From positions 1-64,000 of IMG/VR virus record IMGVR_UViG_3300028027_000054: 64,000 bases of DNA. One strand, given 5' to 3'. Shown here piece by piece: positions 1,499-35,221 of this stretch. Under the pieces are notes generated by a model. That model searched no databases. It was not told the DNA's origin and saw only the letters and a list, made by a program, of their open reading frames with translations. Every line of letters starts with the position of its first letter. Position 1 is the stretch's first letter. The position numbers and the translations under genes were made by a program. The stretch is from a virus.

Positions 1499-1862
1499 GT
1501 TCAAGCGGGTATCTACCACGATGCGGTTTCCAACGTACAGTTGCAGACTTATCATCATGGTAGTGGATAACGTGAGAACAGAGGTGGATAAGCTGTACAA
1601 GAAGTATAACATAAACGATGAGTTTGGAGATGAGGCAGAAGGAGCTTTGGTGATGCCCAACATGGAAGCATACTACCTGCTCTTGGATAAGAGCTACCTC
1701 AGCCATAACACCATTGCACATGAGATCTTCCATGCTGCAGTGAGAATTACGGAAGATCGAGCTATAACGGATGAAGAGGCCCAGGCATGGATGGCAGGAC
1801 ATATTACAGAAACACTGTATAAATTTTTAGACAAGAAGAAGCTACAAGTAAAACATGGCTGA
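1455..1862 (+). CDS. small zincin-like metallopeptidase
   Basis: HEIFH (HExxH) followed by a downstream EEAQAW Glu. The start could instead be ATG 1521. Overlaps the next gene by 8 nt. Confidence 0.65.
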   Translation: MENTTTCSSPVTDGKFKRVSTTMRFPTYSCRLIIMVVDNVRTEVDKLYKKYNINDEFGDEAEGALVMPNMEAYYLLLDKSYLSHNTIAHEIFHAAVRITEDRAITDEEAQAWMAGHITETLYKFLDKKKLQVKHG

Positions 1863-11414: not shown

Positions 11415-13505
11415 ATGGCAAACAAACCTAATAACCCTTCTCTGTGGTCTAAAGCAAAGTCCTTAGCCAAACAGAAATTTGACGTCTACCCTTCGGCATA
11501 TGCTAACGGCTGGGCCGCTAAGTATTATAAAAGCAAAGGTGGCACTTGGCGTAAAGCTGAATACGGTATGCAAGTAATGGGTGACGGTGGCATCCCTGAT
11601 AATGAAGGCTTCAACGCTCTTCCTGAAAGGGTTCAGCAAATGATCATCAGCCGTATGGAACAAGGTGGAGAGAAAATGCCGCCAGAGATTGCCCGTGCAC
11701 GTTTTGCTGCAGCAGGTAATCTTAACCAGATGGCTGACTATGGTTATGCATGTGGTGGGTATATCCCGGAAATGATGTATGGTGGCATGGACTATATGGC
11801 CGGTGGCGGAGAGCCTAACGGTGGTATGGCACTGGGTCAGATGTCAGCTGTTGCTGAGAAGATGAGTAAACTACGTCAGTTTGTTTCTCCAGAACAAAAC
11901 CTGGATCCATGGATTGCATCCAAGCTTGCTGTAATGGATCATAGTGCAGATGCTATTTCTGATTACATGATGTATAATCCTGAGGCTCAGGGTGAAGAAC
12001 AGGAAATGATGGAAGGTGGTGGTTACGTAGTATCACGTAGCAGTGACCGTAAAGGAAAGACTCACAAAGTAACGGGTCCTGATGGTACTGAGAAATACTT
12101 TGGTGATTCTAATCTTGGTCAACATCCTAAAGATCCGGAGCGTAAAGCAGCATTCTATGCCCGTCATAAAAAGAACCTGGATGGTAATCCTTACTTCCGT
12201 GCTTTTGCCAGAGCAACCTGGCAGGATGGTGGACAGATAGATGAAATGAAAAATGGTGGGTCTACTTATTCAAATGGAGTATTTTATCAAACAGGTGGTG
12301 AAGCACCACGTATGGAAGATTACCCGGACTATGGATCCTGGAGGTCAGATTTTGAAGCTTATCTCATGGCTGCTAATGATGCACAGGTACCATCTAAAAG
12401 TCCTGGTGTAAGTAGGGTAAATGGAGATGATGAATCTTATGATGCTGATGGTAACTACTATCCTGGTAAAGAAGGTCAGAGGTATATGGATGCATTAAGT
12501 AATAGTAATCATCCAGATCATATAGCTGCACTAGATGCTGCTAACAGAGATAACTATACTATGATGGTTCCCTCTATCAGAATTGCAGACAAAGCTCAGG
12601 CTACCCCTAAAGCTCTTCCTGGTAAAAAAGGACAGGGTTCTGGCAGTATTGTAGACTTCCTAAACTCTAGTGGAAATAAAAGTGACTATGCCACTCGTAA
12701 AGCTCTTGCTGAAGAGCGTGGTATAGCATCATACAGAGGAACTGCAGACCAGAACATGATGTTGCTCTCCATACTGCGTCAAGAAAATAGTGCAGCTCCT
12801 GTTACCAGACAATCTGCTTCTGCAGACTATGACATGAATAGCAGTAACATGCTCAGAAGAGGTTACGTTCCTCCAAGCAACCCGTTCATATTTGGTGAGA
12901 TGCCACAAAGACAAGCTGTTGCAAAGGAAAGACCAGTTGTAAAAACTCCTGCTGCAGCTAAAGTTTCTGCTGCTAAGAAAGTAAACGCAGTCAATGCTAA
13001 AGATGCAGAAGAGTCTATGACCTTTGCCAAGTATAAAGCAAAAGATCCATACTTCTTTGCAGAAGAATCTGATTCAGGATTTAAAAAAGCTATTGACATG
13101 CCTTTCACATATCTAAGAGACCTGGGTGCACGAACTGTGTTAGACAAGGATGTTATGGCACTTGGACAACTGCTCTCTCTCGGTGCAGGGTCAAGTTTGC
13201 TTAAAGGAATAACTCGTGCAGGAATATCTTCTAGATTTAACAAATTTGTAGACGATGCCCCAGATGATATCGATGATGCTGGTTCTATGGTGTGGAAAAG
13301 TAATAACAATACCATTCATGGAATGCGTGCTGCTGCTGCAGAAATTATGAAATCTCCTGGTAGTCTGAGTGCTTCAAGAAAAAAAGCATTGTCTAACCAG
13401 AAGCGTAAACAAGAAGGTGGACCTGTAGTTGGGCAAGAGATGGAAGTAACACCAGAACAGCTTGAACAACTCCGTGCACAAGGTATTCAGTTTGAAATAA
13501 TCTAA
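11415..13505 (+). CDS. virion cargo polyprotein with GG-delimited small modules
   Basis: 696 aa with about 10 xxxGG motifs. Modules: PSAYANGW, WIASKL, KYFG..DPERKAAFYARH (DUF5754-like) and SIVDFL..RKALA..YRGTADQN (DUF3597-like). Confidence 0.6.
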   Translation: MANKPNNPSLWSKAKSLAKQKFDVYPSAYANGWAAKYYKSKGGTWRKAEYGMQVMGDGGIPDNEGFNALPERVQQMIISRMEQGGEKMPPEIARARFAAAGNLNQMADYGYACGGYIPEMMYGGMDYMAGGGEPNGGMALGQMSAVAEKMSKLRQFVSPEQNLDPWIASKLAVMDHSADAISDYMMYNPEAQGEEQEMMEGGGYVVSRSSDRKGKTHKVTGPDGTEKYFGDSNLGQHPKDPERKAAFYARHKKNLDGNPYFRAFARATWQDGGQIDEMKNGGSTYSNGVFYQTGGEAPRMEDYPDYGSWRSDFEAYLMAANDAQVPSKSPGVSRVNGDDESYDADGNYYPGKEGQRYMDALSNSNHPDHIAALDAANRDNYTMMVPSIRIADKAQATPKALPGKKGQGSGSIVDFLNSSGNKSDYATRKALAEERGIASYRGTADQNMMLLSILRQENSAAPVTRQSASADYDMNSSNMLRRGYVPPSNPFIFGEMPQRQAVAKERPVVKTPAAAKVSAAKKVNAVNAKDAEESMTFAKYKAKDPYFFAEESDSGFKKAIDMPFTYLRDLGARTVLDKDVMALGQLLSLGAGSSLLKGITRAGISSRFNKFVDDAPDDIDDAGSMVWKSNNNTIHGMRAAAAEIMKSPGSLSASRKKALSNQKRKQEGGPVVGQEMEVTPEQLEQLRAQGIQFEII

Positions 13506-18738: not shown

Positions 18739-21700
18739 ATGGCTGAAGACTTTCCGCAACAAATGCTGAATACCGGTATTCCTGCAGGACTGCTTGATGG
18801 TAAAGGTGTGCCAGTATCTCCTTGGGCTACAACGCCTGCAAGTCAGGTAAATGACCCTAATGTTGATCCGAGACATGTTTTAATGGGTCAGGTAACTCGT
18901 GCTATACCAAGTAGTCTTAGTGGTCCTATTCGTTCTTCTGCAAGAGAAGCTGAAAAATATATTGGGCAGGACTTTGGATTCCTGCCTTCTTCTGTCCGGG
19001 ATAATGAAGACTTCTATGCCCAGTATCAGTCTGGTATGGAGAAGATCGGTAAAGGACTATTAAAACTCCCACTATATACCGTAACCAAACTTGGATCAGG
19101 TGTAGGCTTTATTGCCGGTATGGCCAATCCAGTAAACTGGTTTGCAGAAGATGGTTACATCTCTGCTGTAGCTGACAACTCGATCAGCGGGTTCTTTGAC
19201 AGCTGGGAACAGGATATCAAGAACCAATGGTTACCCACTTTTCAGGAGGCTGAAGACCAGGATAAAGGTTTCTTTGCAAGAGCAGCTACTGATGTTGACT
19301 TCTGGACTGAAGACTTTGTAGATGGTTTGGCGTTCATGGCGTCTGCTTGGGTACCAGGTATGGCACTTAGTAAGGTGGGAGCAGGAGCTAAAGCCATTGC
19401 AGGCTTGGCTAAGTTTGGATCCAGGGGACTGGGAGCTGTTGGGGAGTCTGTAGAAGCTGTTGCAGCTACTACAAACTATTTCAAGAATGCAGCTAAATAT
19501 GCTAAGACCTTAGATAAGTTCAATGCCTGGGCTCTGGCAACTTCTTCTGAAGCTATGTTTGAAGCCAAGGGTGTCAAGGAAAATGTTTTAAAGTCTTTGG
19601 AAGGTCTTGACATGCCTGAGTCTGAGAAAAAGAAGATAGCTGGTGATAATGCCCGTAATGCATTCTTGATGAATGCTGCTCTTCTTGGTGCTACCAACGT
19701 CTTTGAACTTTCACTGGTTTCTAAAATGCTTAATAAAACCAGTGGTGTAGCGTCAGGTATTACAGGTGGTGCTAAGCTGGGAGAAGATGTAGCCGTAAAA
19801 CAGGCTACAACCCAAGTGGGTAAGTTCCTGGAAAGCGGGTTTGGCAGGTTTGCTAAAGACGCTACTGCTGGTGTATTCCGTGAAGGTTTTATAGAAGAGA
19901 ATGGACAGCTGGCTATTCAACGATTCAATGAACAGTATGGTGCTGCCGGTAAGGTGGCAGACATGCTGGATTTTAATACTTATGCTGAACTGGGTGGGAA
20001 CTACCTGAAGCAAACCTACGGAGCACTGGCAGGTGATGACACAGAAGCTGCTACCAGCATTGGTCTGGGTGGTATCCTGGGAGGTGGTATGACCGCTATC
20101 GGTAATGCCCGCCAGGCTCCTAAAGATAAACTCACTACAGAAGAGGCCGTTGACTACTATAACAAGTCCCAGGAAAGCTGGTTGAAGTTTGGTAACATCT
20201 ACCAGACAGAACAAGTTGTTACTAAAGACGCCAGTGGTAACGATGTAGTCACTGAAAAGATAAAGCTGGATCAGAACAACCAGCCGATGATGGACCAGCA
20301 GAAACTGGCTGGTATAGCCAGCTCGGTAAGATCCAACGCTGCTGCTATAGATCAGACGGACAATGACACAAACATGACCCGTCGCAACCTAGTAAGGGAT
20401 AACGCCTTTGCAGATTTTGTACTGGCCCATGTCAACGCCAACATGGAAGATACCCTGTTGGAGAAGCTTGATGCTATTGCAAACAGCTCACCTGAAGAGC
20501 TGGCCAAGCTCGGTTTTGTAGCAGATAAGACCCTGCCTGAACAGATTGCCCGTTATAAGTCACTAGCCAGTACGATCATCAAGCAGAATAAGATCATCAA
20601 TGCAGATATCATATTTGATGGTTCTAAAGAAGACGCTGCAAGAAAATCCCGTCTGACGCAACTTGCTGCCCAGCAAGCTGTGTACAAAGGTCTTGCTGCA
20701 GAAGAACAGGTAAAATATAATGAGATCCGTAACCAGGCCGTCAGCTCTGAAAACTCTTCTTTGTCAGATGGTCTTGTAGAACAGCTTAACGGTATCAAGC
20801 TTAGGATCACTAGCCAGGAACAGTTCATCAAGGAGCTTAAAGCTCAACCCAATAATCTCACCAAGTCACAGATAAAAGTAGCACAGGATCTTTTAGATAA
20901 CCTTAAAGAACAGCTGGCAAGTCTGGAGAAGACCAACGAGCTGTCTGTAAAGAACCTGAAGACGTTCAACAACGGGTTATACCAGTTTGAGAAGGATGCC
21001 CGCAATGAAGTGGCTTATCTGATTCCCATGCTGAAAAGGATGAAGTACAAAGGTGAGCTAGATAACCACGTTGAAACCCTCGGAAAAGAATGGGGATACT
21101 ATGCAGATTTCAATGATGGTAAGAAGAACTTCCTGGACATGTTCATTGAACAGCAGATCCAGGGACCTGTAAATAGCATTATAGAAGCAGAAAACAACCA
21201 GCCTCAACTTCCACCAGCTGCTCTGGCATCGCCACAAGGTCCAGCTACTCCTCCTCCTGGTCCTTCTGCAGGGCCACAACCTGGTGGTGCTGCACAGACA
21301 CAACCTGCCCCTACTCAGCAACAGACTTATGATGACCTGGAGAAGTTCCTTCAGGCAGAGTATGACATGGTAAAGCAAGCTCTGGAGGCTCAGGGAAACC
21401 CTGTGCCCAGTTATACAGACTGGAAACGTACTGCAGGCATAGAAGCTACTAAGCGTTTTATGGCTAAGAAAGGACAGCAACAACAAGGTGCACAGCAACA
21501 ACCTGCAGCTACCCCTGCTCTTACAGAAATGGAAAAAGCAGAAGAAAGGTTAAGACAAATATGGAACACCATAGGAAACGGTCCAGGTAGAAACGCAATA
21601 GAAGATGGTTGGACTGAGTCATTTGGACTTTTAGGTGATACTCTGAGTGTTGGTGGAGACAACCTGCAAGCTCATGGTATGGGTAAATCCGGGTTTGCTT

Positions 21701-24267
21701 ACGCTATAAAAGACTTGTTTGATCTATTCAAAAAAGGAATAGATCCTAACAGAGGTGGTGGTCGTTTGTATACTGCCCCACTTGCTGTGTCTAAAGAAAA
21801 TAAAGCAGCTGCTTCTGCAACAGGAACATCTGGAGGAACAGCTTATGCAGACGGTTCATTTATGTTGGTTGCCAAAAAAGGAATTCTTGGCATAAGCAAT
21901 GTAAATGATATTGGTGGTATCCTTGTTAACAGCGGCTTAACCGATATCAACCCAGAAATTCTTACAGAACTAAGAAAAGCTTTCCCTGGTTTAGTTATAG
22001 AAAGTTACAAAGGTGCTAAAGAACTAGTACAGAAACTTAATAATAACGCTCCACAAACTTCTACTTCTGCACCGGCAGCTCCTGTAGTTACAGATGTTGA
22101 AGAACCCGCTGAACAAACTACCAAAGAAGAACAACAGGCTCCTGCATCTACGTTAGAGAAAGAACTGAATGACCTGGCTAACCAACTCCGTAATGATGTT
22201 GGTATTCGGACTGAGCTTAGGTTCATGAAAGCTGGATCTATTGGATATGATAAAGACGGTAACAAGTACCAGTTAGTATCTAAGAAAGATAAGTACGGAC
22301 GCAGCCTTGAGTATCGTAAGAACGATGGACAGGAACAAAGCTTTAATCCAAAGACAGCTTCTCAGCAATCTGGCAGCCTGGATTATTATCCTGAAGGGTT
22401 TGTTAACTTATACAGTAAGAACCCCAAAGCTACCTTTGACAAGTACGAGAAAGATAAAGCTGCCATAGAAGAAAAGTACAGGCAGATAGAGGCTGCTAAA
22501 GCCCAGGCAGAGCAGAGTCAGTCTCAAGCAGACCAGACTGATCCGGAAGAAGAGGATACATCTAAAGATGTCAAGGACTTTGTACAGGACATTAACAAGA
22601 ACCGTACCCAGTCTAACCAGAACAATGCTTTTGCCAATGCGGAATACCAGGAAGGTTTCAGGCAGGTGGCTCCTTCTAACTCACTGGCCAACACTACAGA
22701 TCTGGTAAACGTAGTAGAGTTTGCAGCTAACCAGATCCGCTATGAAAGAGGAGATGTAAACAAGAACTATGTCTTTGATGTAGCTACCAGCACTTTTATG
22801 CCCGGTCAAAAGGTTACATATAAAGTCATGGTGGATGGTTTTGAACCCGTGGTGAACCGTCTCACTGGTGAGATGTATGATAAGAGTGCTCTATACAATG
22901 AGAACTGGAATGCTGTACAGAGCATGTTTGACTTTATTCCTATCGGGGTGTTTGCTAACATCCGTGGAAAAGAAGTCATGATCGGTACCATACATGAACC
23001 ACAGTGGATTGAGTATAAGATCGGTAACAAGTATCCGCACATTGCTGTTCCTCAGGACCAGATTGACCAGGCAGTGCCTGATGTAGTAAAAGAACAGGTC
23101 CAAAAAAATAGAGAACTTCGTAAGTTTATCTTGGAGAACTACAACCAAAATCATAACTTTGTTATAGAGGGAGTTGTAGAAGATAAATCCATGGGTATAC
23201 TAAGAACTACAGAATCTGTTGATCCTATCAGCAAGCGGGTAAATCCGAAGATTGCAGAAGGCGGTACAGACAACCGTCATGGTATGTTTGGTATCGTCAA
23301 GGACGGTATGATCCAGTCAGACCGTAATGTAGAAATAGACAACATCATCCCTACAGAATCTTTCTCTCCTCAAAATATTGCTAACTATCAGGGTGTAGCA
23401 GTGCTTATGTTGCCGACACCACTGGGCAAATGGTTCCCTTCCTTTATCCAACTGCCCAATGTTTCTACAGAGCAGTCTGAGTTTATCATTGAAGCATGGA
23501 AAGCTTTTACAAAACAGACCAATAATCCGGAAATAGTAAAAGCAGTGTATGATGCCATGGGTCTTACCCAGTCTGCCGACAGTTTTGCTGTTGGTGTACT
23601 GAGAGATTACATCCACCACTACATCACAATAGTAGATGAGAAAGGAATATCCCGTACAGGAACAGGTAGTGAGCTTTCTCCAGGCAGTGCCAGGATAAAC
23701 ATTACAAACAAGGGAGGCCTGGAACTGCAGGTAAAAGGTTTAGACCGCAGTTGGTATACCACCGCTGAGCCGATCATGAAAGCAGAAAACCTGCCGGTAG
23801 ACTACCTGCAGAAGATGAGCAACCTGAAAACCACTATTAGGTTTGAAAATGCTAAGAATGACAGCTTAAAAGGGATCAACTCTACAGACAAAGCCACCAT
23901 ACTTTCTATTAAGAACGGTAAGCTGGTCAAAGAAAACATAACGTACAACCAGTACATTATGGACCGTGCAGGAACTTTTGTAGACAACGGTATCCCAAGT
24001 AAGAATGCCTTTGGTGACTGGGTGTATTTTGCCAACCCTGTGGTGAAGATGAAAATGACCAATGCTTCAGATCCTAATGAAGGACAGTCTGAATCTAAAA
24101 AAGAAGTAACACCTACTCCTACAGTAGACCAGGTTAACACACCTCGTGAAGATAAAGGTGCGGCTCTCCTGGCAGCTCTTAAATCCAAGAGGCTTCAGGA
24201 AGAGCAGATGGAAGAACAGAAGAAAAACTGTACTAGCCTGAGAAGCAAGCTTGATAACATAATGTAA
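18739..24267 (+). CDS. large virion cargo/ejection protein with membrane-inserting segments
   Basis: 1842 aa. Gly/Ala-rich hydrophobic segments in the N-terminal 460 aa, coiled coils, and P/Q/A linkers around inserted domains. Single Cys at residue 1831. Confidence 0.6.
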   Translation: MAEDFPQQMLNTGIPAGLLDGKGVPVSPWATTPASQVNDPNVDPRHVLMGQVTRAIPSSLSGPIRSSAREAEKYIGQDFGFLPSSVRDNEDFYAQYQSGMEKIGKGLLKLPLYTVTKLGSGVGFIAGMANPVNWFAEDGYISAVADNSISGFFDSWEQDIKNQWLPTFQEAEDQDKGFFARAATDVDFWTEDFVDGLAFMASAWVPGMALSKVGAGAKAIAGLAKFGSRGLGAVGESVEAVAATTNYFKNAAKYAKTLDKFNAWALATSSEAMFEAKGVKENVLKSLEGLDMPESEKKKIAGDNARNAFLMNAALLGATNVFELSLVSKMLNKTSGVASGITGGAKLGEDVAVKQATTQVGKFLESGFGRFAKDATAGVFREGFIEENGQLAIQRFNEQYGAAGKVADMLDFNTYAELGGNYLKQTYGALAGDDTEAATSIGLGGILGGGMTAIGNARQAPKDKLTTEEAVDYYNKSQESWLKFGNIYQTEQVVTKDASGNDVVTEKIKLDQNNQPMMDQQKLAGIASSVRSNAAAIDQTDNDTNMTRRNLVRDNAFADFVLAHVNANMEDTLLEKLDAIANSSPEELAKLGFVADKTLPEQIARYKSLASTIIKQNKIINADIIFDGSKEDAARKSRLTQLAAQQAVYKGLAAEEQVKYNEIRNQAVSSENSSLSDGLVEQLNGIKLRITSQEQFIKELKAQPNNLTKSQIKVAQDLLDNLKEQLASLEKTNELSVKNLKTFNNGLYQFEKDARNEVAYLIPMLKRMKYKGELDNHVETLGKEWGYYADFNDGKKNFLDMFIEQQIQGPVNSIIEAENNQPQLPPAALASPQGPATPPPGPSAGPQPGGAAQTQPAPTQQQTYDDLEKFLQAEYDMVKQALEAQGNPVPSYTDWKRTAGIEATKRFMAKKGQQQQGAQQQPAATPALTEMEKAEERLRQIWNTIGNGPGRNAIEDGWTESFGLLGDTLSVGGDNLQAHGMGKSGFAYAIKDLFDLFKKGIDPNRGGGRLYTAPLAVSKENKAAASATGTSGGTAYADGSFMLVAKKGILGISNVNDIGGILVNSGLTDINPEILTELRKAFPGLVIESYKGAKELVQKLNNNAPQTSTSAPAAPVVTDVEEPAEQTTKEEQQAPASTLEKELNDLANQLRNDVGIRTELRFMKAGSIGYDKDGNKYQLVSKKDKYGRSLEYRKNDGQEQSFNPKTASQQSGSLDYYPEGFVNLYSKNPKATFDKYEKDKAAIEEKYRQIEAAKAQAEQSQSQADQTDPEEEDTSKDVKDFVQDINKNRTQSNQNNAFANAEYQEGFRQVAPSNSLANTTDLVNVVEFAANQIRYERGDVNKNYVFDVATSTFMPGQKVTYKVMVDGFEPVVNRLTGEMYDKSALYNENWNAVQSMFDFIPIGVFANIRGKEVMIGTIHEPQWIEYKIGNKYPHIAVPQDQIDQAVPDVVKEQVQKNRELRKFILENYNQNHNFVIEGVVEDKSMGILRTTESVDPISKRVNPKIAEGGTDNRHGMFGIVKDGMIQSDRNVEIDNIIPTESFSPQNIANYQGVAVLMLPTPLGKWFPSFIQLPNVSTEQSEFIIEAWKAFTKQTNNPEIVKAVYDAMGLTQSADSFAVGVLRDYIHHYITIVDEKGISRTGTGSELSPGSARINITNKGGLELQVKGLDRSWYTTAEPIMKAENLPVDYLQKMSNLKTTIRFENAKNDSLKGINSTDKATILSIKNGKLVKENITYNQYIMDRAGTFVDNGIPSKNAFGDWVYFANPVVKMKMTNASDPNEGQSESKKEVTPTPTVDQVNTPREDKGAALLAALKSKRLQEEQMEEQKKNCTSLRSKLDNIM

Positions 24268-24283
24268 TCTTATCCTATACCCT

Positions 24284-27200
24284 ATGATTTGTCCTAACAT
24301 TACCAGTCCGGAGTGGAAAGCTTTGGTTGCCAAGGTCGGTGAAAATCGTGCTTGGAAAGAGTTTTTGATATATGGAAAAACCCCCAGTGCTGATAACTAT
24401 GAAATCATAGATGCAGCAGCTGTGAAAGATAATACAGGTAAAGCATCTGAAGTTTTAGAATTTAGAGCTTTTCAGAGTTTTAAAGAGTATGAAGAGTTTC
24501 TGGAAGTAAAGAGGGATTTTACTAACGATTTTGCTAGTGCCTATCTAAAGCATTCTGCTGCTATAGATTTTGTTGATAGAATCTTTGATAAAGTTTTTCC
24601 TGGTGAAATGACCTGGGGTAACTACATTATTGATCCTAAAACAGGACAGACTAAGTTTATAGTAGATAATGAACCATTAGCAGGTATGACTGCAGAAGAG
24701 TTAAACAAAATGGTTCGTGCTAAGTTCAACACATGGTTTAAAGCAAACCTTAAACGAGAGTTGGATACAGAAACCATTAACTTAAATGGTAAAGAAATAA
24801 ATATTAAAAATCCTTCTACCACTGAAGAAAGAGTAGCACGTACAATTTTTGATCTTTTTGCTACCTTTAAACCAGCAGTTGAAAATTATGTATTTTCTAA
24901 AGAAGGTTTAGAAGCTGATGTTATTAATGACTTATCAGTTAAATACAAAGTTGTTGTCTATAATCCGGACAATGATGAAGACAAACAAGTGTTTCGTTCT
25001 ATCAGGACAAAATCTACTGAGCAGATTGCAGCAGGTATTAGTAAGGACCTGATCCGTTCACAGAAAGATCTGAAATATACTTCTCACATCATGGCCAGTG
25101 TGATCAACACACTGGGTGATATAGCTCCTAACAGGAAGCTGGAGGTATCTCCGGCCCAGGCTTTTAATACCGTAAAGGGTATTTATGCTGAAGTGGCTGA
25201 TAACCTGAAGATGGCCCTTAACGGTATCGTTGGTTCTGATCAGGACCTGGCGGAAGTAAAAGCTTCAGCGTCTTATAATGACATTCTCAATGAGTTTCCG
25301 GTATTGGCTTATGTCAACAGCTATGACGATATGGTCAGTGCTGCAGAAACGTATGATACTATAGTATCCAACTTTGATAAATATAAAGAATCTGTTGTAG
25401 CAGAGCTGGCCCGTAAGGGTATCCGTATGGGAAAAAACACCATACAGATGGTAGATCCTGCTGATGTAGCTGTACAGGAAGTTGATGACGCAGAAAACAC
25501 AGAGATCAGCCAGGATGAAATCGGTGATCGTTATGACCGCAGTGTTTTTGAAACCAATCCCCGTGACACAGCCAGCGTAAGGGTCAAAGCTCTTGTGCAA
25601 ACCATTAAGACCGGTGAGTACGAACTAGGCATTCCCGTATATGCAGATCCAAATGATGTGTTTGCAGATATCCTGCAGGCTGGCAGTGAAATGGCACTTA
25701 CTGGTTTTACGGATGCTTCCGGTAAGTTCCAGGCATTTAAGTTTGCCATCATCAAGCGTGCTGAGGCAAGACCCTATCTGAATGATTTTCTTACCAAGCT
25801 TAACCGCTTTGAGCAAAACAACGAGTGGGAAAAGATCAATGACATTCTAACTTTTGCCACTAAAGCATTTGCTAACGAGACCCTGCTTCTTTACAAGACC
25901 CGTAAAGATGGTAACCAGGTAACTGGTATCACTGACGTAAAAGTGATCAACGCCAACCGTGACACCGTGGAAGACCAGGTGTCAAGAGAGTGGCTGGAAT
26001 CCCACAAGCAGTCTGCATTCTTTAATCGTTCTTCCCTGAATGAACTTAAAGTCAATCCTGAGAAACTGCAGAGACTGGGTAAGATCATTGAAGAAGGTAA
26101 AGCAGCTGTAGGACCAGCCAAGACCGCTAAGTTTAAAGAGTTCTTTGCTACACTGGGTATTGAGTTTACTGACGCTGAACTGGCTTATATAACTCCCCGT
26201 TTGTCTAAGGCACTTGGTAAAGGACCTGACTTTGATATCGTCTTTGGAAAGAAGAACCTTTTAGATAACATATACACTTCTTTTACAAAAAACGCCTCCC
26301 AGGTATTTGATGATAACTATGGATTTCAGGATGAAAAAGGTAACATGCGTAAGCTGGCTACCCTGTACTATGAAGCCAACCCTGGAAGATATAAGCTGGC
26401 CTCAGCCCAGACTGCAGACGGTAAGCAGAAATACCTGTACATCCTGACCAACTTTATTGAAAAAAAGAAACGCCAGTGGAACCTGGGTCAGTACGCCAAC
26501 GTCACCAATAGTGCTCTTGCCCGTCCCAACAGGTCTTTCTGGGATAAGGTAAAAAGCGGAGTGAACAGTTTTATACCCCAGTACTTTAACGGTATCCGTG
26601 AACAACAAGCGGGTAAAGACGGTAAGGTGAGAAAGTCCCTTACTGAAAAAGAGCAGACCGTAACCATGTTGCTCAAGCATCAGGAGAATCTTAATGTCGC
26701 TACCTATATCAACTTCACGTTGTCAGATAAGACCACTACCATAGAAACCAAAATGACCAAGGAGTTCTTTGTAGATGGTAATGACCAGCCTCTGGGTAAG
26801 GGTCGTGATTATATTGTAAACGAGAAAGGTGAGCTGCAGTTTACATCAGGCCTTGGACAAAGAGCTTATGATGCATTTGTAGCTCCTGAGGTGAGCCGTA
26901 TCTTGGCTGCCATTAAACATGGCAAGGATATTAACCTGGAGAACTTCGACATAGCCAGTAAGCTGTTTTATTTTATTCCTTCCCTGAACTCCAATCCAAA
27001 CCTGGAAGAGTTCCGTAGTGATCTGTATGCTGGTCAACTGACTATAGACCAGCTTAATGCCAAACATGGCACCGCTGTAGGTCAGGCTGTACTGGAAGAC
27101 ATGCAGCAGTCTGCAGAACAACAGATAGACCAGTTTATTGCCAACGGTATTTTGAAAGTAGAAAATGGTGCATACTCATTCCCAACTTCTATAAACGGGT

Positions 27201-30200
27201 TCAAGAACACAGACTATGTCAACCGGTTGCGTCAGTCAGGGGTTAAAGGTCGTGACGCAGCACGTCTGATGCTGCTGGACATGAAGCTAAATTACCAGAA
27301 CACCCAGGTAAAGATGATCCAGTTCCTGAGGTTTGATCCGGCCCTGGCATTTAAAAAGTTCAAGGGCTTTACCAATCCGGGTACATTTACAGACATATCT
27401 GCTGCAGACAGGATTAACCTGGTTTCTACCACATGGGATGAATTCTCCAAGCGTGCTGCTGCCTTGATTGCCCCTGGTAGCCAGGGAAGCTATAGCTGGA
27501 AGACCAAGGATGGTGAGACTTATTCTTCTCCTTCTTATGAAGCAGTTACTGCTGCTGACGTAGACTACAAGATTGGAGAAACAGATAATACTACAACAGA
27601 TGCTCAAGAATACATTACACTTAATGAGCATATAGATAACCTCATGTCAGAAGGTAAGATCCCTCTGGAGATCTGGCAGTCTATCTATGATAAAATTGAA
27701 AAAGCCGGTCCTGGTGGATACTATGAACTCAGCGGTGAAGAGCTGGGTTATGTATTCACACCTACTAAACCTGTACAGGTAAACGACGTAGACGAAGGAT
27801 CTGCAGAAGCAGGTCTGAACCGTATTGACTATGTAAAGAGCTCCCGTTATCCGTTGATTCCCCAGCATGAAGCAGGAAGTGAGCGTGATAAGATGCGTGG
27901 CTGGATGGAGCGTAATAACATCCGTGCCATCAACTTTGCTTCAGGCAAAAAGCTGGGTCGTCCTGTAAGATCAGTTACACTATTTAACGAAAATGGTTCT
28001 GAGTTTATAGAACCCTCTGCCAATGATACAGCTGCTGCCAGGCAAACGCTAAGCCGTGAAGGTCTGCGTACACAGCAGGAGATTCCGCACCAGAAAGACC
28101 AGATCCGTACGGTGTCTCAGATGAACCGTACCCTGTTTGATAATATGCTGGAGGAGAGTTTCTCTCTAAAGGGTATCCAAAAGATAAGCGGTACAGAAGC
28201 AAAGGGTTTAAAAGAACTGGTACGCTCTCGTTTGTTTGAAAAGCAGGCTGAAAAACTGCAACAGGAACTGGGAGATCTAAACAGATCCCATCGTGGTCTG
28301 CACCGTTTACTTAAAGATGTTATTCTAAATGACACCACAGGAAGCTATGGTGAAAACGATCTTAAGAGTATAGAGCTGGATGAAAAGACCGGCAAGTTTA
28401 AACTCCCGCTTGAGCAGCAGTTTAAACTCAAGAAGTTTCAGGGACTGATCAACTCTTTGATCAACAAGAACGTCATGCTTAAAGTAGAGGGATCCAGCTT
28501 TGTGCAGGTCTCTGGTGTGGGTGCTAAGTTCAACTTCTCCAACCTTAGTAAAGGTGTAAAGAGTGGAATCATCTGGACGGATAGCTACGCCAAGAACTTT
28601 AAAGACGGTGACGTTAAACTAAACTACATCCGCAAAGAGGGTGATCAGGTGAAGCCTGCCCAGGTGATTGTGTCCCAGTACCTGCGTGACAAAGAAGGAA
28701 ACCTGATTGATCTGTCTCAATATATCACTGAAAAAAACGGGGTAAAGATCCTGGATACGTCTAAGTTCTCTCCTGAAATGTTTGAGCTCGTGGGAACACG
28801 TATTCCCAACCAGTCACATCCTTCCATGCTTCCCATAGAAGTGGTAGGTTTTCTACCGGCTTATATGGAGAACACCATCATAGTCCCAGATGGTATCACC
28901 GGTCAGATGGGTTCTGACTTTGACGTAGATAAACTCTATGCTTACATCTCTAAGATGGAGCAGAAAGAAGACAAGTTTGTTCCTGTACAATATGAACTGA
29001 ACAGTACAGAAGACGTAGATAAGCTTAGTGAAGAACAGCTTGGTCAGCTCTACCGTGACATTCACTGGATGGCCCTGACGCACCCGGCTGCTTACGATAA
29101 GATCACCAAGTCTATTGACATGCCAGAGGTAAAAAGAAAGGTGGCGGAAAGAGAAGCTGAGCTGAAAAAGTATGGTATAGCTGATGACAAGGGTGTAATG
29201 CTTCCCCTGGACTTCATGACCTCTATCAACCGATTTAACGATAACCGTTCTGGTAAAGTGGGTGTAGGTGTGTTTGCCAACCTGATCTCTGCTCAAGCAG
29301 ACTTCCAGGACAAGGTACTCAGGCTGGGTATGATGCAAGATGACGTTGCAAAAGAAAAGCCTATCAAGATCAGGCTTTCTAAAAACGGAAAGGTTGTAGA
29401 TCTTCTTTACCTGGGTAAACCAGGTACTTCTAAGTCTTTTGTAGGTAAGACCCGTACTATATCTGAGAACCTGAACATCATGTTTACGGAGTCAGTGGAC
29501 AACGCCAAGAACCAGTATCTGCGTGAGTTCAACTGGGAAGAAAAAGCTATGAGTGCCATTGGTGTATTTGAAATGCTTACTGATGAGAATGGCAATGCAG
29601 CTCCTATTGAGTTTGTCATGGACCTGACTTCTCAGGAAGCCATTAAAGAACTTTTTACATCTATAGACCAGAAGCAGGACTCGTTTGGAGAGTTTGACAG
29701 CAGTGCACTAGATACCGCCACCTTAGAACTTCAGTTTAAGTACGCAAACGCCTTGGTAACCGGTGGATACTTTTCCAGTATAGCTGAGGCACAAGAGTAT
29801 TTAGTAGACGAGAACCGTGACCAGGCACTGGATCCGGAAACCCTGGATGATATGTGGTTGGTAGGTAAAGCCATCAAGTTACAGGAAGAGCAAAAGCAAG
29901 AGGCTCTAGAAAAGATAGCAAAGGATAAAGGCTACACGTCTGTTCGTGATCTGATGTTAAAATACACCACTGTTCAACATGACAGTCTGGAGCTCTTTAA
30001 GAGAATGGAGGACATAGGTCGTGAGCTAAACACCATCCTTGGTAGCGTATATACCTATACTAAAGGTATTGGTCCCAATGTATTTGCCACACGTCAGAAG
30101 CTTACCCAGCTGAATAAACTTTCTGGTTCTACAAACTTTCTTGGTCTTACTAATGTAGCTGGTGTTATCAAGCGTAATGACAGCACGGGTAAGATAGAGA

Positions 30201-33200
30201 TCGAGGCTCAGGGAGAGATCGGGGCATCTATCAAGCATTCACTTATGGTGGCCCAGGATATTTACAAGGCCCTGTTTCCGATCAGTTCTGGTAGTCATAT
30301 AGAAGCTGTTGTAGATAAATTGATGGCAAACCAGGGTAAGAGCAAAGAAGAGCTGGGAAAAGATAGTTACATCAGCCTTTATGACACTGTGTTCAATGGT
30401 ATCAAGGCTTACCTGTACACTATGCCTGGTTTGGAATTATTCCAGGACTCACGTGGCACCAGGGATAAGCTTGTCAACGGAGACACGTCTTTGGGTAAAC
30501 GTATCATGGATCTGAGTAAAGATCCAGAATACAGACGTAACGGGTTCCTTAAAAATCTGGAAGTAAAGCAGGCTCCCAAGCAGAAAGCTTTCACTGTAAA
30601 CTTCAAAGCTCCTTTTGGAACTGATCTGGACGAGAAAGCCATCATCAGCGGGTTCTATGAACTGGCCACTTCTGATAAAGAAGAGATCCGCCAGCTGGCC
30701 AAAGACCTGGCTATTTATCCTTTTGTTACAGGTGATGCCGGTAACATGGGTAGGTTTATTCCTGTTGACTATTATCTGAGTGACGAGGACTTTAGCCAGG
30801 TGATTGCTGCACTAGACAGCGTATACAGCATGAACATGGATGACCCAGGAGCTATGCAGGCACTGATGCAACAGATCGTGCAGAACAATCCTGACCAGTT
30901 TGCCAAGGCATTTAAGTATTCTACATATGGAAGCGTTACCGGTACAAAAGACAATGTATTTAAACGTGTAGTCAAAAAGCTTGTAGGAAAAGAAGAACTG
31001 AAAGATGTAACTACGTTTACCATTAAGATTGGTGACTTTGAAGCTGATCCTAAAGGAAAGAACATAGCAAACTCTCTGAAGGTTCCTCTGTCAAACGATG
31101 AGTCAAAATCTCTTAAGCAACAAGGTAAGACAGTAAATTTTAAATATCCTCCGTATATCCTGATCAACGATACGTTTACCAGTGAGTTTATAGAAGCGGG
31201 TAGCCGTAACGTGAACTATCTGTACAAGAGGGTTAGCTTTGCGGGAAATCCGGTTGGTACCTATGAGCGGATTAATATCCTGGGATACAACGGTATCAAA
31301 GAGTATGACTTTAACAACCCAGATCTGGCATCATCCATAGAAGGTAATAATAACGTAGAGGATGACACAGCGTTTCAGGAAACCGTTCCGCCTGCAGCTC
31401 CTGTACAGGAACAAGTTACTTCTACTGGTAGTAAAACTTATACAGGTAAGATAGAAAGCTTGCAACCTAACCAGGTGTTTGTGTTTGGGTCAAATCCTGA
31501 AGGTAGACACGGTGCAGGTGCAGCAAAAACTGCAGCTGATAAGTTTGGTGCAGTTAATAATCTTGGTCGTGGTTTACAAGGACAGTCTTATGCACTGGTA
31601 ACCAAGAACCTTAAACCTGGTTTTACAGAATCAAGCACTGGGATCACTTATGAGAAAGCCGGTGAAAGAAGTGTTAGTCCGGAACAAGTTAAGGCTAACA
31701 TTCAGGAGCTTTATGAAACAGCTAAGCGTAATCCGGATAAAGAGTTTATTGTAGCTTATTCAGCTACAGGTAAAAATCTGAATGGATACAGTGCACAAGA
31801 AATGGCTGATATGTTCTCTTCTGCAGAGATACCATCTAACATGGTATTTGAAGAAGGGTTTAGTAAGTTGTTAAATAAGCAGGAGGCTCCTGTTACTCAA
31901 GGTGTAGAGATCTCTTCTAACTCAAAAGGTCTGGCAGCAGCTCTTACTAATCCTACAGAGCTGGCTAAGCAGAAAGGTAATTTGACTCAGTCTTATCCTG
32001 TTACGTTTGATGGGGTTACTTATAAAGACGCAGAAGAAGCTTACCAGAAGAACAAGGGTAAGTATAAACCTGAAGGTCTTGGTAAGGGATCTACATATGA
32101 TCTGATGGTACAGATCCTGGAAGCTAAGCTTAAGCAACATCCTCGTTTGACAGAAGAGATCACTAAAGCTGGAGGCATGAATTGGTTGTCTAAAGCTACT
32201 CATCAGCCAACTGGTAAGAATACGGTATGGGAAACTGGTGGGCAGAACCTGTTTATCAATGCTTTACAGGAAGCTTACTATGGTGTAACTGAAGATGCTG
32301 CAATCTTAGCAGAGCAAAACGAGGAGCAGGAAGTTATTAAAGCACCGCAAGAGGACCAGGAATCAGTCACCATGGTAACGTATGGTGGTAGAAACTTTAT
32401 CCTGGAAGAAAATGCAGGTAGTTTTGATGTTTTCTATGCTAATGATAATGGAACTAAGGGTGTTCCTGTAGAAGACAGGGGGCTGTTTAAAAAAGTACAG
32501 CTCACACACGCTATTTCACTTTACCCTGAAAGAGTGGTTTCTATAACAATCGGTTCTAAAGAGAACAGTTACTATGTTATTGATGATAGGATTTTCTCTC
32601 TACAACCAAGCTCTTTTGGTGACCTGATCACATCTGATGATGTCACACGCCGTGTGATGCAGCAGATGAACACACCAATGCAGGAAAAGCAGGTTGAGCA
32701 GCAAGAACCTAAGAAGTCTACTACAACGTTTACATATAAGAATATCACTGTACCTACAGAGTTTCAGCTGAGTGCAGAACAAAGCAAGGCTCTGGAAAAC
32801 ATCATTGACTTTGTAGAAGCAAGATCTGCAGGAGAAGGAACTTATGACGGCACCTATACATTAGAAGGCTATGCCGGTACTGGTAAGACATCCATCATTG
32901 GTGTTCTGGACCGGTATATCTCTCAGAAAGCCAAGGGTACTAAGTTTGTTTACATGGCACCTACCCATGCGGCTACTGTTGCCTTGGGTAATAACATTGT
33001 GAAGTATGGTGCCAGGGAACTGCCTATGACTATACAGGCATCAGTAACAGAATCTAAGGATCCGAGAAGACCCGGACCTAAGTTTACCAAGAAGTTTACT
33101 GACAGGGCTACTGGTATGAGGAATGTCATCGTTTTGGATGAGGCTTCTATGTTGGCCAACAAAGACTTTGAGAAGCTTATTCTTGCTGCTAAAGCAGAAG

Positions 33201-35221
33201 GTTATAAGATCATATTCATGGGAGATCCCAAGCAGATCCCTGAGGTAATGCCAGGTGTAAAAACCAAAGAGCTTGCCAGGGCATTTGCTAATCCTAACAA
33301 GTCAGTACTTACCAGTGTATTCAGAACCAAGGACAACAACATCCTGACCGTGCTGACCAACATCCGTAACAACACGGACTTTATGGAGTATGAGTTTGAG
33401 AGTACAGACAACATGAAGCAGCTCAATCGTTCTGCTTATAATGAAGAGCTGATCAATGATCTTCAGAATAACCTGGAAGACGTCACCATTATTAACTACA
33501 CCAATGATGGGGTTGCCAAGATCAACAAGGCTGCCCGTCAGGTGTTGGGGTATAGCGGACCGTTGAAACCCGGAGAGAAGATCGTTGGGTACCTGGGTTC
33601 CCAGACTAAGCAGGTAGAAAAAGGACATCTGGCTAACTCGGTGAGCTACATGGTCCAGGACGTCTCTGTAAGGGATGATGGAGCTGTAGTCATTACAGCT
33701 ACATCTAAAGCCCTGGAAGATCTGCAGAAAGCAGGTATGACAGGTTTTCCTTCCCAGGTCTCTTTCAGATACTTACAACTCTCTGTTAATGATTCTTTAG
33801 ACTTTGGTTTGAACCAGGCCCAACTTGACAATAACAAGAAGGAGCTTGAGCGTTCCTTAAAACAGATTCATGAGCTTAATGAACTGTACCAAAGAAAAGG
33901 GATTGCTTATCCGACTTACCTGGTACAGGTACAAGCTATTCGTACAGCAATGGCTGACTTCAACACAGGAGCCAAGTATATTTATAATCCGGCATCAGGT
34001 CAGATAGAACCATATGATTCCAGGAAACATAAAGGCATCAATGCCAACCTTGAGATGGACAAGGGTGTGGACTTTGGATATGGCATCACGGTACACAAGT
34101 CACAGGGTATGACCATTCCTATTGTGTATTTTGACACTAACAGTCTTAGTGTAGTGTCTGACACAGCCATCACCAGGGATGGGCAGAAGTTCAATACAGA
34201 AAAGAATGCCCTGTACTATGTGGGTATGTCCCGTGCCTCTCAAAAACTGGTGGTTCCCAAGAACACCGTAGCAGCACCGATAGCCAGTCAGTCTGACTTT
34301 ATGGATGGGTTCTCTGCTAGTCCTGAGTTTCAGATGGAGGACTTTAATCCACTGGAACTGTTCTTAGGTTTCCAGCAGGATGAAGCTATAGATAACTTTG
34401 TAGCTGAACTGTTTGGTAAAGAAACCACAGTGACTGACTATAAAGGGTTCTTGAATAAACTCTTCAAGGCAACATCTGCCGTTAACAAAGCCCTGATCAC
34501 AGCTATCAGTAAAACAGGTACGGTGGAACCGGTGACATTTAAGATAGACATGTCTCAGCCTGATCCGGGTACGTACAACAGAGCTACCAGGACTATTACG
34601 ATTAATCCAAAGGCAGCTATTGCTGATGCAGTGGACATAGAAGACATGCAAGCTAAGATCCATGAGGTGATCATGCATGAGCTGGTGCACCACGTGACCG
34701 TGGATCTGCTACTGGCAGACCAGGCTACGCTGAGTCCTGAGCAACGCAAGTGGGTCAAGGGTATTAACAACCTCTTTGACCAGGTGCAAACCAAGATGCT
34801 GGAAGATCCTCAACACTCTTCAGCTTTGCTGATGGCCATGGCCAACATGAGTTCTGAAGGGTTCATGTCAGCTAAAGATAAGAGTCTGTACTACGGACTG
34901 ACCAGCGTATATGACTTTGTTACCATGATGATGACAGACAAAGGTTTCCAGAACTTTATGAACACTGTACCGGTACAGGGAAACAAAACGATCCTTGACA
35001 GGTTTATGGATTTGTTGGTTAGTCTGATCAAGTCTCTGGGTATCCAGGTAAAAGATAACTCAGCCCTGGATGAAGGTCTTAGAAATATCATTGGCCTGAT
35101 GGGTGCCCGTACGGAGAACAATGTACAGAAGTCTATTGCCACTGAGTCTGCAAACCGGGACTACATAGAGAAAAACTTTGATAGAATTATTAACGTGCTC
35201 AACATTAAAACCAAGTGCTAA
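24284..35221 (+). CDS. virion-packaged two-barrel RNA polymerase fused to macro-like, NADAR-like, SF1B helicase and zincin domains
   Basis: 3645 aa. RIPNQ..GSDFDVDK (DFDVD at 28916-28930), the crAss-type DFDxD catalytic loop. FVFGSNPEGRHGAGAA. YPVTFDGVTYKDAEEAYQ..K. GYAGTGKT / DEASM / GDPKQ / TVHKSQG / YVGMSRA. HELVH at 34676-34690. Confidence 0.88.
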   Translation: MICPNITSPEWKALVAKVGENRAWKEFLIYGKTPSADNYEIIDAAAVKDNTGKASEVLEFRAFQSFKEYEEFLEVKRDFTNDFASAYLKHSAAIDFVDRIFDKVFPGEMTWGNYIIDPKTGQTKFIVDNEPLAGMTAEELNKMVRAKFNTWFKANLKRELDTETINLNGKEINIKNPSTTEERVARTIFDLFATFKPAVENYVFSKEGLEADVINDLSVKYKVVVYNPDNDEDKQVFRSIRTKSTEQIAAGISKDLIRSQKDLKYTSHIMASVINTLGDIAPNRKLEVSPAQAFNTVKGIYAEVADNLKMALNGIVGSDQDLAEVKASASYNDILNEFPVLAYVNSYDDMVSAAETYDTIVSNFDKYKESVVAELARKGIRMGKNTIQMVDPADVAVQEVDDAENTEISQDEIGDRYDRSVFETNPRDTASVRVKALVQTIKTGEYELGIPVYADPNDVFADILQAGSEMALTGFTDASGKFQAFKFAIIKRAEARPYLNDFLTKLNRFEQNNEWEKINDILTFATKAFANETLLLYKTRKDGNQVTGITDVKVINANRDTVEDQVSREWLESHKQSAFFNRSSLNELKVNPEKLQRLGKIIEEGKAAVGPAKTAKFKEFFATLGIEFTDAELAYITPRLSKALGKGPDFDIVFGKKNLLDNIYTSFTKNASQVFDDNYGFQDEKGNMRKLATLYYEANPGRYKLASAQTADGKQKYLYILTNFIEKKKRQWNLGQYANVTNSALARPNRSFWDKVKSGVNSFIPQYFNGIREQQAGKDGKVRKSLTEKEQTVTMLLKHQENLNVATYINFTLSDKTTTIETKMTKEFFVDGNDQPLGKGRDYIVNEKGELQFTSGLGQRAYDAFVAPEVSRILAAIKHGKDINLENFDIASKLFYFIPSLNSNPNLEEFRSDLYAGQLTIDQLNAKHGTAVGQAVLEDMQQSAEQQIDQFIANGILKVENGAYSFPTSINGFKNTDYVNRLRQSGVKGRDAARLMLLDMKLNYQNTQVKMIQFLRFDPALAFKKFKGFTNPGTFTDISAADRINLVSTTWDEFSKRAAALIAPGSQGSYSWKTKDGETYSSPSYEAVTAADVDYKIGETDNTTTDAQEYITLNEHIDNLMSEGKIPLEIWQSIYDKIEKAGPGGYYELSGEELGYVFTPTKPVQVNDVDEGSAEAGLNRIDYVKSSRYPLIPQHEAGSERDKMRGWMERNNIRAINFASGKKLGRPVRSVTLFNENGSEFIEPSANDTAAARQTLSREGLRTQQEIPHQKDQIRTVSQMNRTLFDNMLEESFSLKGIQKISGTEAKGLKELVRSRLFEKQAEKLQQELGDLNRSHRGLHRLLKDVILNDTTGSYGENDLKSIELDEKTGKFKLPLEQQFKLKKFQGLINSLINKNVMLKVEGSSFVQVSGVGAKFNFSNLSKGVKSGIIWTDSYAKNFKDGDVKLNYIRKEGDQVKPAQVIVSQYLRDKEGNLIDLSQYITEKNGVKILDTSKFSPEMFELVGTRIPNQSHPSMLPIEVVGFLPAYMENTIIVPDGITGQMGSDFDVDKLYAYISKMEQKEDKFVPVQYELNSTEDVDKLSEEQLGQLYRDIHWMALTHPAAYDKITKSIDMPEVKRKVAEREAELKKYGIADDKGVMLPLDFMTSINRFNDNRSGKVGVGVFANLISAQADFQDKVLRLGMMQDDVAKEKPIKIRLSKNGKVVDLLYLGKPGTSKSFVGKTRTISENLNIMFTESVDNAKNQYLREFNWEEKAMSAIGVFEMLTDENGNAAPIEFVMDLTSQEAIKELFTSIDQKQDSFGEFDSSALDTATLELQFKYANALVTGGYFSSIAEAQEYLVDENRDQALDPETLDDMWLVGKAIKLQEEQKQEALEKIAKDKGYTSVRDLMLKYTTVQHDSLELFKRMEDIGRELNTILGSVYTYTKGIGPNVFATRQKLTQLNKLSGSTNFLGLTNVAGVIKRNDSTGKIEIEAQGEIGASIKHSLMVAQDIYKALFPISSGSHIEAVVDKLMANQGKSKEELGKDSYISLYDTVFNGIKAYLYTMPGLELFQDSRGTRDKLVNGDTSLGKRIMDLSKDPEYRRNGFLKNLEVKQAPKQKAFTVNFKAPFGTDLDEKAIISGFYELATSDKEEIRQLAKDLAIYPFVTGDAGNMGRFIPVDYYLSDEDFSQVIAALDSVYSMNMDDPGAMQALMQQIVQNNPDQFAKAFKYSTYGSVTGTKDNVFKRVVKKLVGKEELKDVTTFTIKIGDFEADPKGKNIANSLKVPLSNDESKSLKQQGKTVNFKYPPYILINDTFTSEFIEAGSRNVNYLYKRVSFAGNPVGTYERINILGYNGIKEYDFNNPDLASSIEGNNNVEDDTAFQETVPPAAPVQEQVTSTGSKTYTGKIESLQPNQVFVFGSNPEGRHGAGAAKTAADKFGAVNNLGRGLQGQSYALVTKNLKPGFTESSTGITYEKAGERSVSPEQVKANIQELYETAKRNPDKEFIVAYSATGKNLNGYSAQEMADMFSSAEIPSNMVFEEGFSKLLNKQEAPVTQGVEISSNSKGLAAALTNPTELAKQKGNLTQSYPVTFDGVTYKDAEEAYQKNKGKYKPEGLGKGSTYDLMVQILEAKLKQHPRLTEEITKAGGMNWLSKATHQPTGKNTVWETGGQNLFINALQEAYYGVTEDAAILAEQNEEQEVIKAPQEDQESVTMVTYGGRNFILEENAGSFDVFYANDNGTKGVPVEDRGLFKKVQLTHAISLYPERVVSITIGSKENSYYVIDDRIFSLQPSSFGDLITSDDVTRRVMQQMNTPMQEKQVEQQEPKKSTTTFTYKNITVPTEFQLSAEQSKALENIIDFVEARSAGEGTYDGTYTLEGYAGTGKTSIIGVLDRYISQKAKGTKFVYMAPTHAATVALGNNIVKYGARELPMTIQASVTESKDPRRPGPKFTKKFTDRATGMRNVIVLDEASMLANKDFEKLILAAKAEGYKIIFMGDPKQIPEVMPGVKTKELARAFANPNKSVLTSVFRTKDNNILTVLTNIRNNTDFMEYEFESTDNMKQLNRSAYNEELINDLQNNLEDVTIINYTNDGVAKINKAARQVLGYSGPLKPGEKIVGYLGSQTKQVEKGHLANSVSYMVQDVSVRDDGAVVITATSKALEDLQKAGMTGFPSQVSFRYLQLSVNDSLDFGLNQAQLDNNKKELERSLKQIHELNELYQRKGIAYPTYLVQVQAIRTAMADFNTGAKYIYNPASGQIEPYDSRKHKGINANLEMDKGVDFGYGITVHKSQGMTIPIVYFDTNSLSVVSDTAITRDGQKFNTEKNALYYVGMSRASQKLVVPKNTVAAPIASQSDFMDGFSASPEFQMEDFNPLELFLGFQQDEAIDNFVAELFGKETTVTDYKGFLNKLFKATSAVNKALITAISKTGTVEPVTFKIDMSQPDPGTYNRATRTITINPKAAIADAVDIEDMQAKIHEVIMHELVHHVTVDLLLADQATLSPEQRKWVKGINNLFDQVQTKMLEDPQHSSALLMAMANMSSEGFMSAKDKSLYYGLTSVYDFVTMMMTDKGFQNFMNTVPVQGNKTILDRFMDLLVSLIKSLGIQVKDNSALDEGLRNIIGLMGARTENNVQKSIATESANRDYIEKNFDRIINVLNIKTKC

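Follow-up and report, generated by a model that had tools for sequence, protein, structure and literature searches.

The 64,000-nt stretch analysed here (hereafter the window) is taken from a 79.8-kb IMG/VR virus record and contains a single uninterrupted open reading frame (ORF) of 3645 amino acids (aa; positions 24284 to 35221, plus strand, as are all features located in this ORF below), the product of which is, judging from its sequence, a polyvalent protein of the crAss-like virion RNA polymerase (RNAP) type. The region between its polymerase body and a helicase contains two adjacent modules, a macrodomain-fold module (domain 1, aa ~2392-2533, 31457 to 31882) that belongs to the family A1S_2505_Nterm / phrog_2072 and a compact NADAR-fold module (domain 2, aa ~2540-2669, 31901 to 32290) that belongs to no curated family. 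Based on predicted folds and conserved motifs, there appears to be about an even chance that both domains reverse DarT-type ADP-ribosylation of bases on the incoming genome.

The two modules are encoded by a stop-free segment of frame 1 (31436 to 32290) which corresponds to aa 2385-2669 of the ORF and which was used as a 285-aa search query (P0001). This query retrieved 3767 proteins at an expectation value (E) <= 1e-3 among 1.84 billion representatives, a number far beyond chance. Homology to domain 1 covers P0001 residues ~1-150 (14-142 for NCBIfam and 8-149 for PHROG) and homology to domain 2 covers residues ~150-285, with linkers rich in P/A/Q and E/Q bordering the pair. An earlier note made from the letters of this DNA had read a DarG-like macrodomain and a NADAR-like domain in the segment; all the motifs that it quoted were recovered in frame 1 inside one ORF, its limits agree with the independent homology limits of both domains, and the residues that it singled out show the highest conservation in 198 domain 1 sequences and in the domain 2 family.

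Domain 1 scores 100 bits (cut-off 45; E 8.7e-29) with NCBIfam NF049995 (A1S_2505_Nterm) and matches phrog_2072 with an E of 5.8e-31. Neither family has an assigned function and a literature search on "A1S_2505" returned nothing functional. The family occurs in 401 GenBank phage records, usually as a protein of ~157 aa. The AlphaFold2 model of domain 1, built from 60 sequences (predicted local distance difference test, pLDDT, 95.4), displays a three-layer alpha/beta/alpha fold with a central mixed sheet, as expected of a macrodomain, and the matches listed by Foldseek are macrodomains (TARG1, alphavirus nsP3, YmdB and DarTG) with probabilities of 0.87-1.0. Two motifs stand out in this fold: loop 1 (31493 to 31519), in which N2404 is followed by a GxG phosphate loop (G2410-A-G2412) located after the strand formed by residues 13-19 of the model, and T2440-K2441 (31601 to 31606), which provides a candidate catalytic Lys of the DarG/AdfM type. 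In the 198 sequences, N20 (N2404), G28 and T56 are conserved at 100%, and G26 and K57 (K2441) at 98%.

The closest point of reference is AdfM (gp104) of phage PhiKZ, a macrodomain that removes DarT2-written ADP-ribose (ADPr) from DNA (PMC13309987). When AdfM was added to the domain 1 alignment with MAFFT, the two were colinear, with N2404 aligned to N23, G2410-A-G2412 to G29-A-G31 and T2440-K2441 to T77-K78, the equivalence of N2404 and K2441 to AdfM residues being alignment-based. The active-site reference residues are N22/K80 in DarG and N23/K78 in AdfM; AdfM K78 corresponds to DarG K80 (PMC13309987, PMC11543638), and the N23A substitution lowered AdfM activity (PMC13309987). Together, model and alignment support the view that domain 1 is a macrodomain fold with Asn and Lys of the DarG/AdfM type, as guessed in the earlier note. 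Its designation as "DarG-like" holds for the Asn/GxG/TK motif, with the caveat that Foldseek scores place domain 1 no nearer to DarG than to other macrodomains and that the Pfam Macro profile does not match. A DarG antitoxin proper was rejected: downstream of domain 1 come the NADAR-like domain and the helicase, not a DarT-binding C-terminal domain, and no toxin gene was found in the block, so that domain 1 would be an orphan eraser and not a DarG. Two other phage proteins were set aside as references, T4 Tk.4 (the AdfM of T4) because its MAFFT alignment with domain 1 was unreliable, and ICP1 AdfB because it is a 77-aa DarT binder and not a macrodomain.

Domain 2 is a module in its own right and is well conserved: it was found in 58 retrieved homologues sharing 55-72% identity, mostly within proteins of 3000-5500 aa. 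Its model, built from 22 sequences (pLDDT 83.9), shows a beta-hairpin and then helices, and has E. coli YbiA as its sole credible Foldseek match (probability 0.85), in agreement with the NADAR fold that had been guessed. The predicted catalytic Glu and phosphate-binding Lys of NADARs (E2584-x6-K2591, 32033 to 32056) are seven residues apart on the helix following the hairpin, a disposition that matches the one seen in NADARs and whose spacing equals that of E43/K50 in P. nicotianae and E88/K95 in E. coli C7 (PMC11543638). Further downstream (32201 to 32233) are H2640, the candidate last-strand catalytic His, and N2646-x-x-W2649-E2650, which would represent the D/N-x-x-W element. Within the family, E52 (E2584), K59 (K2591), H108 (H2640), W117 (W2649) and E2650 are each conserved at at least 95%, and N2646 at at least 90%. 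The charged residue of the last strand differs among NADARs (Glu in YbiA, Asp in BC4488 and His in phage gp30.3), a His for this Glu/Asp being the hallmark of phage gp30.3-type NADARs (PMC11543638, PMC11125620). In the N-terminal half, E2584/K2591 align with E36/K43 of T4 gp30.3 and both proteins have an E-I-x-S-N ... A-L-[ST]-N motif that is spaced in exactly the same way, while the C-terminal half of this alignment is unreliable. Links to known NADARs were also detected at the margin of the family: the divergent homologue P0144 has a sub-threshold Pfam NADAR match (E 0.11, 13 bits), divergent members read E-H-A-Y-Q like classical NADARs, and language-model neighbours of domain 2, taken as clusters, carry NADAR and Phage_30_3. 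From predicted structure and conserved residues, we conclude that domain 2 most likely represents a compact, unmodelled and separate clade of the NADAR fold.

The protein carrying the two modules had been taken for a virion RNAP, an assignment that motif, homology and gene block bear out. A motif search located DFDVD at aa 1545-1549 (28916 to 28930), an instance of the DFDxD catalytic motif of crAss-like two-barrel virion RNAPs, which is the mark of the packaged two-barrel polymerase in all crAss-like phages (bioRxiv 10.1101/2020.03.07.982082; PMC7886860). The surrounding region matches phrog_16227 "virion structural protein" (aa 1101-1557) and is 30% identical (aa 1101-1554; tblastn, E 2e-35) to proteins of Flavobacterium FpV4-like, Bacteroides crAss001-type and Cellulophaga phages; compared with PDB sequences, the whole protein gave a helicase-type match only and no RNAP match. 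Past the polymerase body, the protein continues for ~1300 aa with macro, NADAR, an unassigned segment, a superfamily 1 (SF1) helicase and a zincin. The helicase is complete and Dda/RecD-like (aa 2787-3324, 32642 to 34255; phrog_325 E 8.4e-60; AAA_30 E 2.6e-22; PIF1; UvrD_C_2). The zincin-type motif HELVH (aa 3465-3469, 34676 to 34690), found by motif search, lies near the C-terminus in a segment with no Pfam match, and this segment and the helicase segment are common to several giant homologues. The DFDxD motif, the similarity to crAss-like proteins, the muzzle gene upstream (see below), the helicase and the zincin together justify calling it a virion protein that is "polyvalent" as PMC5512222 uses the term.

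Polypeptides of this kind travel in the virion and leave it with the genome, gp66 of phi14:2 being a known example of a capsid-packaged protein that is ejected into the host cell (10.1101/2020.03.07.982082), and both enzymes would accordingly be present at the start of infection, ahead of all phage gene expression. The C-terminal cargo of the RNAP polyprotein would then consist of two tandem ADPr-processing enzymes held between flexible linkers, for both of which we infer catalytic activity. The macrodomain would act on thymine-linked ADPr from DarT2-like toxins and the NADAR on guanine-linked ADPr from DarT1-like or ScARP-like toxins. Base marks on the entering single-stranded or transcribed DNA would be erased at once and the genome would stay transcribable and replicable, with the erasers acting either as part of the polymerase chain or once the zincin has cut them free. 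Such a division of labour has precedents: DarG-, TARG1- and AdfM-type macrodomains strip thymine-linked marks (PMC13309987), NADARs including that of T4 strip guanine-linked and not thymine-linked ADPr from DNA and RNA (PMC11125620, PMC11833690), and a single phage, T4, opposes the macrodomain AdfM to DarTG2 and the NADAR AdfN (gp30.3) to DarTG1 (bioRxiv 10.1101/2025.11.20.689424).

Several observations weigh against this proposal. Profile searches, to which the earlier note had looked for confirmation, gave no significant Macro or NADAR link for either domain, whether in Pfam (E <= 1), PADLOC (E <= 10) or PDB sequences (phmmer), all searched with the 285-aa fragment, or with hhalign. Pfam Macro (PF01661) has no match in P0001 at E <= 1 and none across the 79.8-kb record, and the precomputed Pfam annotation of free-standing domain 1 homologues reads "-"; because this profile does not recognise domain 1, macrodomain membership is claimed at the fold or superfamily level only. 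The domain 1 profile retrieved only spurious matches among PDB sequences (nucleoporin, DnaI), and hhalign of domain 1 with PhiKZ AdfM gave an insignificant probability of 2.9%, yet aligned exactly the N/GxG loop. For domain 2, no match was obtained in Pfam, NCBIfam, PHROG, PADLOC or PDB sequences, and neither PF08719 (NADAR) nor PF08010 (Phage_30_3) was hit at E <= 1. With hhalign, domain 2 reached 9.7% against a 24-sequence phage NADAR alignment, in which only the helix preceding the last strand was sensibly aligned, and 0.2% against T4 gp30.3. In the lack of a significant sequence-profile link for either domain, homology thus rests on predicted folds and motif alignments. Regarding the active site of domain 2, H2640 adjoins the sole late beta-bridge of the model, but hhalign offsets it by four residues from the canonical NADAR Glu, and the Trp element has an Asn in place of the Asp (N2646-x-x-W2649), an absence that had been remarked from the sequence. 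Packaging and ejection of the present protein are themselves inferred by homology from its relatives. Finally, other fusions of domain 1 (with DUF4326 phosphatase-like, YAcAr/DprA SLOG and 2H/Acb1-like domains) fit a network that processes soluble ADPr equally well.

This last point leads to the strongest alternative, namely that the modules degrade soluble ADPr-derived immune molecules (cyclic ADPR isomers, TIR/Thoeris signals, ADPr-phosphates or toxic NAD+ products) and blunt signalling from the first minute. Free-standing domain 1 proteins, besides being fused to NADAR, are fused to a 2H/Acb1-like phosphodiesterase, DUF4326/DUF488-N3, a YAcAr SLOG or a DprA-like domain (P0008, P0017, P0040 and P0091), partners which hint at a wider nucleotide and ADPr processing toolkit, and in the view of Iyer et al. 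the Macro, NADAR, SLOG and DUF4326 modules of phages, which form one network, mainly destroy soluble ADPr-derived signals (PMC9503650). We nevertheless regard this alternative as the less likely one: Asn and Lys give domain 1 a DarG/AdfM-type active site, and thymine-ADPr DNA is the substrate of the characterised enzymes of this type (PMC13309987); every NADAR assayed so far removes guanine-ADPr, whether on DNA or on RNA (PMC11125620, PMC11833690); and the polymerase and helicase in the same chain put both domains on nucleic acid. A canonical NADAR (PF08719) is the partner of free-standing domain 1 in 24 of the 120 best matches; the macro-like module has thus been joined to NADARs of two distinct lineages, which speaks for a common task.

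The covalent link to an RNAP would also suit substrates other than DNA, such as guanine- or phosphate-end ADPr on early transcripts, NAD/ADPr-type 5' ends, or ADP-ribosylated virion RNAP or host proteins (modified, for instance, by a co-injected transferase). NADARs including that of T4 reverse guanosine-ADPr on RNA, and TARG1-type macrodomains remove phosphate-end ADPr from RNA (PMC11833690). No data prefer RNA over DNA as the substrate, however, and no ADP-ribosyltransferase was found next door, so that such targets seem quite improbable. That the domains have no catalytic activity, and instead sense ADPr/NAD or act as structural spacers within the cargo that is ejected, is highly improbable: neither reaches a curated Macro or NADAR profile, and domain 2 is short for a NADAR and has no Asp in its D-x-x-W element, but the candidate catalytic residues are 95-100% conserved over hundreds of diverged sequences, a purifying selection typical of enzymes, and the validated phage NADAR gp30.3 is an equally divergent His variant (PMC11125620).

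Among uncultured phages, domains 1 and 2 turned up in dozens of giant proteins with a DFDxD motif, which is present in ~40 of 57 giant homologues. Each domain may occur alone; where they occur together the order varies, and 6 of the 9 joint cases have them side by side. In the nearest orthologue (P0124), domain 1 is present and domain 2 absent, while in P0123 domain 2 stands ahead of domain 1 together with ~370 extra residues. Compared with these two proteins, the stretch between polymerase body and helicase (~31400 to 32650) is hypervariable, and the single domain of the first and the reversed order of the second make it look like a hot spot of module exchange. In IMG/VR, domain 2 was detected at 43 loci, nearly all in ORFs that exceed the 3-kb flank and often near the C-terminus, with domain 1 close by in 5 of them; a tblastn search of 50,697 GenBank phage records with domain 2 found nothing. 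On a few IMG/VR contigs (L040:2836-4137, L041 and L042:2854-3381), domain 2 is found in short ORFs (~175-430 aa from stop to stop), versions that would be handy for expression.

Domain 1 also extends to gut crassviruses, a cultured one included. It lies within transcription-block proteins of the gut crassviruses cr50_1 and cr112_1, and in the cultured Kolpuevirus "frurule" (OQ198718.1, L046:331-7488) a 2385-aa "putative RNA polymerase" carries domain 1 at aa 1890-2026 (E 1e-49), downstream of a DFDxD motif at aa 1344, and no NADAR-like domain. In this protein, the TK motif reads P-T-K-D and is even nearer to that of DarG. Its host is Bacteroides cellulosilyticus, and this gut phage offers a cultured system for testing.

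Other features of the virion gene block were noted. The ~117-aa segment linking the NADAR-like domain to the helicase (aa 2670-2786, 32291 to 32641) is kept in P0123 and P0124 and has no family match. Upstream, the ORF at 1855-6609 encodes a crassvirus muzzle protein (PF25731, E 5.4e-26), that at 6610-11403 has a C-terminal DUF5872 (E 5.3e-13) and that at 11415-13505 has an N-terminal sub-cutoff DUF5872 match (E 5e-4, 21 bits for a cut-off of 27.5). The remaining giant ORFs of the block have no Pfam matches. An ADP-ribosyltransferase-like insert considered in the neighbouring 1842-aa ORF (21520 to 22050) was discarded, since Pfam gave nothing better than an unrelated DUF at E 0.11 and PDB sequences gave no match.

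If base ADP-ribosylation is indeed erased in this way, the phage would have a counter-defence that is independent of early gene expression, which would solve the timing problem posed by a defence that blocks transcription and replication. A function would thereby be proposed for a large family of "unknown function", and the C-terminal part of crAss-like RNAPs would appear as a shuffling site for anti-defence modules. More tentatively, and with some doubt, Crassvirales and their environmental relatives, cultured crassviruses of the human gut among them, may ship nucleic-acid de-ADP-ribosylases inside the injected RNAP and so erase base marks on the entering genome or transcription bubble with no need for phage gene expression, with domain 2 as a cargo-specialised NADAR clade and domain 1 accounting for A1S_2505_Nterm/phrog_2072.

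Several of these components have been described before, namely phage AdfM and AdfN, tandem Macro-NADAR proteins and packaged ADPr-processing enzymes (PMC9503650, PMC13309987, PMC11257639). A literature search retrieved no paper linking Crassvirales or crAss-like phages with macrodomains or NADAR, and the 2017 polyvalent-protein survey does not mention NADAR and has "macro" only as "macromolecule" among the three matches listed. What we propose as new is the occurrence of tandem erasers within an injected crAss-like RNAP, a function for a phage family that had none and an unmodelled NADAR clade.

With PhiKZ AdfM, domain 1 has in common the macrodomain fold, the N-x5-G-A-G loop, the T-K motif and the status of an orphan phage-encoded module without a DarT-binding domain. 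AdfM differs in being a free-standing protein of 162 aa recognised by Pfam Macro (E 4.9e-7), which is produced late and carried into the phage nucleus (PMC13309987), whereas domain 1 is Pfam-invisible inside a 3645-aa virion protein and has a ~25-residue insertion after the T-K motif. Domain 2 resembles AdfN/T4 gp30.3 (PF08010) by its predicted NADAR fold, N-terminal motif, Glu-x6-Lys pair and, as a candidate equivalent, a conserved His near the last strand; unlike gp30.3, it keeps the N-x-x-W-E-T-G-G element, occurs almost only inside giant proteins, has no PF08010 match and is absent from the 50,697 GenBank phage records searched. That free-standing phage AdfM and AdfN overcome DarTG2 and DarTG1, respectively, is a recent finding, and here both types are fused in tandem. 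The association of Macro and NADAR in one polypeptide, with a predicted early packaged deployment, recalls the tandem phage proteins of Iyer et al. 2022, and the make-up of the carrier, a very large virion protein that unites several enzymes, helicase and zincin among them, recalls the polyvalent proteins of Iyer et al. 2017; the proteins of these surveys are, in contrast, mostly stand-alone and from myoviruses. Finally, the carrier resembles the crAss-like virion RNAP gp66 of phi14:2 by its DFDxD motif, its similarity to FpV4, Cellulophaga and crAss001-type proteins and its position in a giant virion gene block beside the muzzle gene, and differs from it by the added ~1300-aa extension that brings macro, NADAR, helicase and zincin together behind the polymerase.

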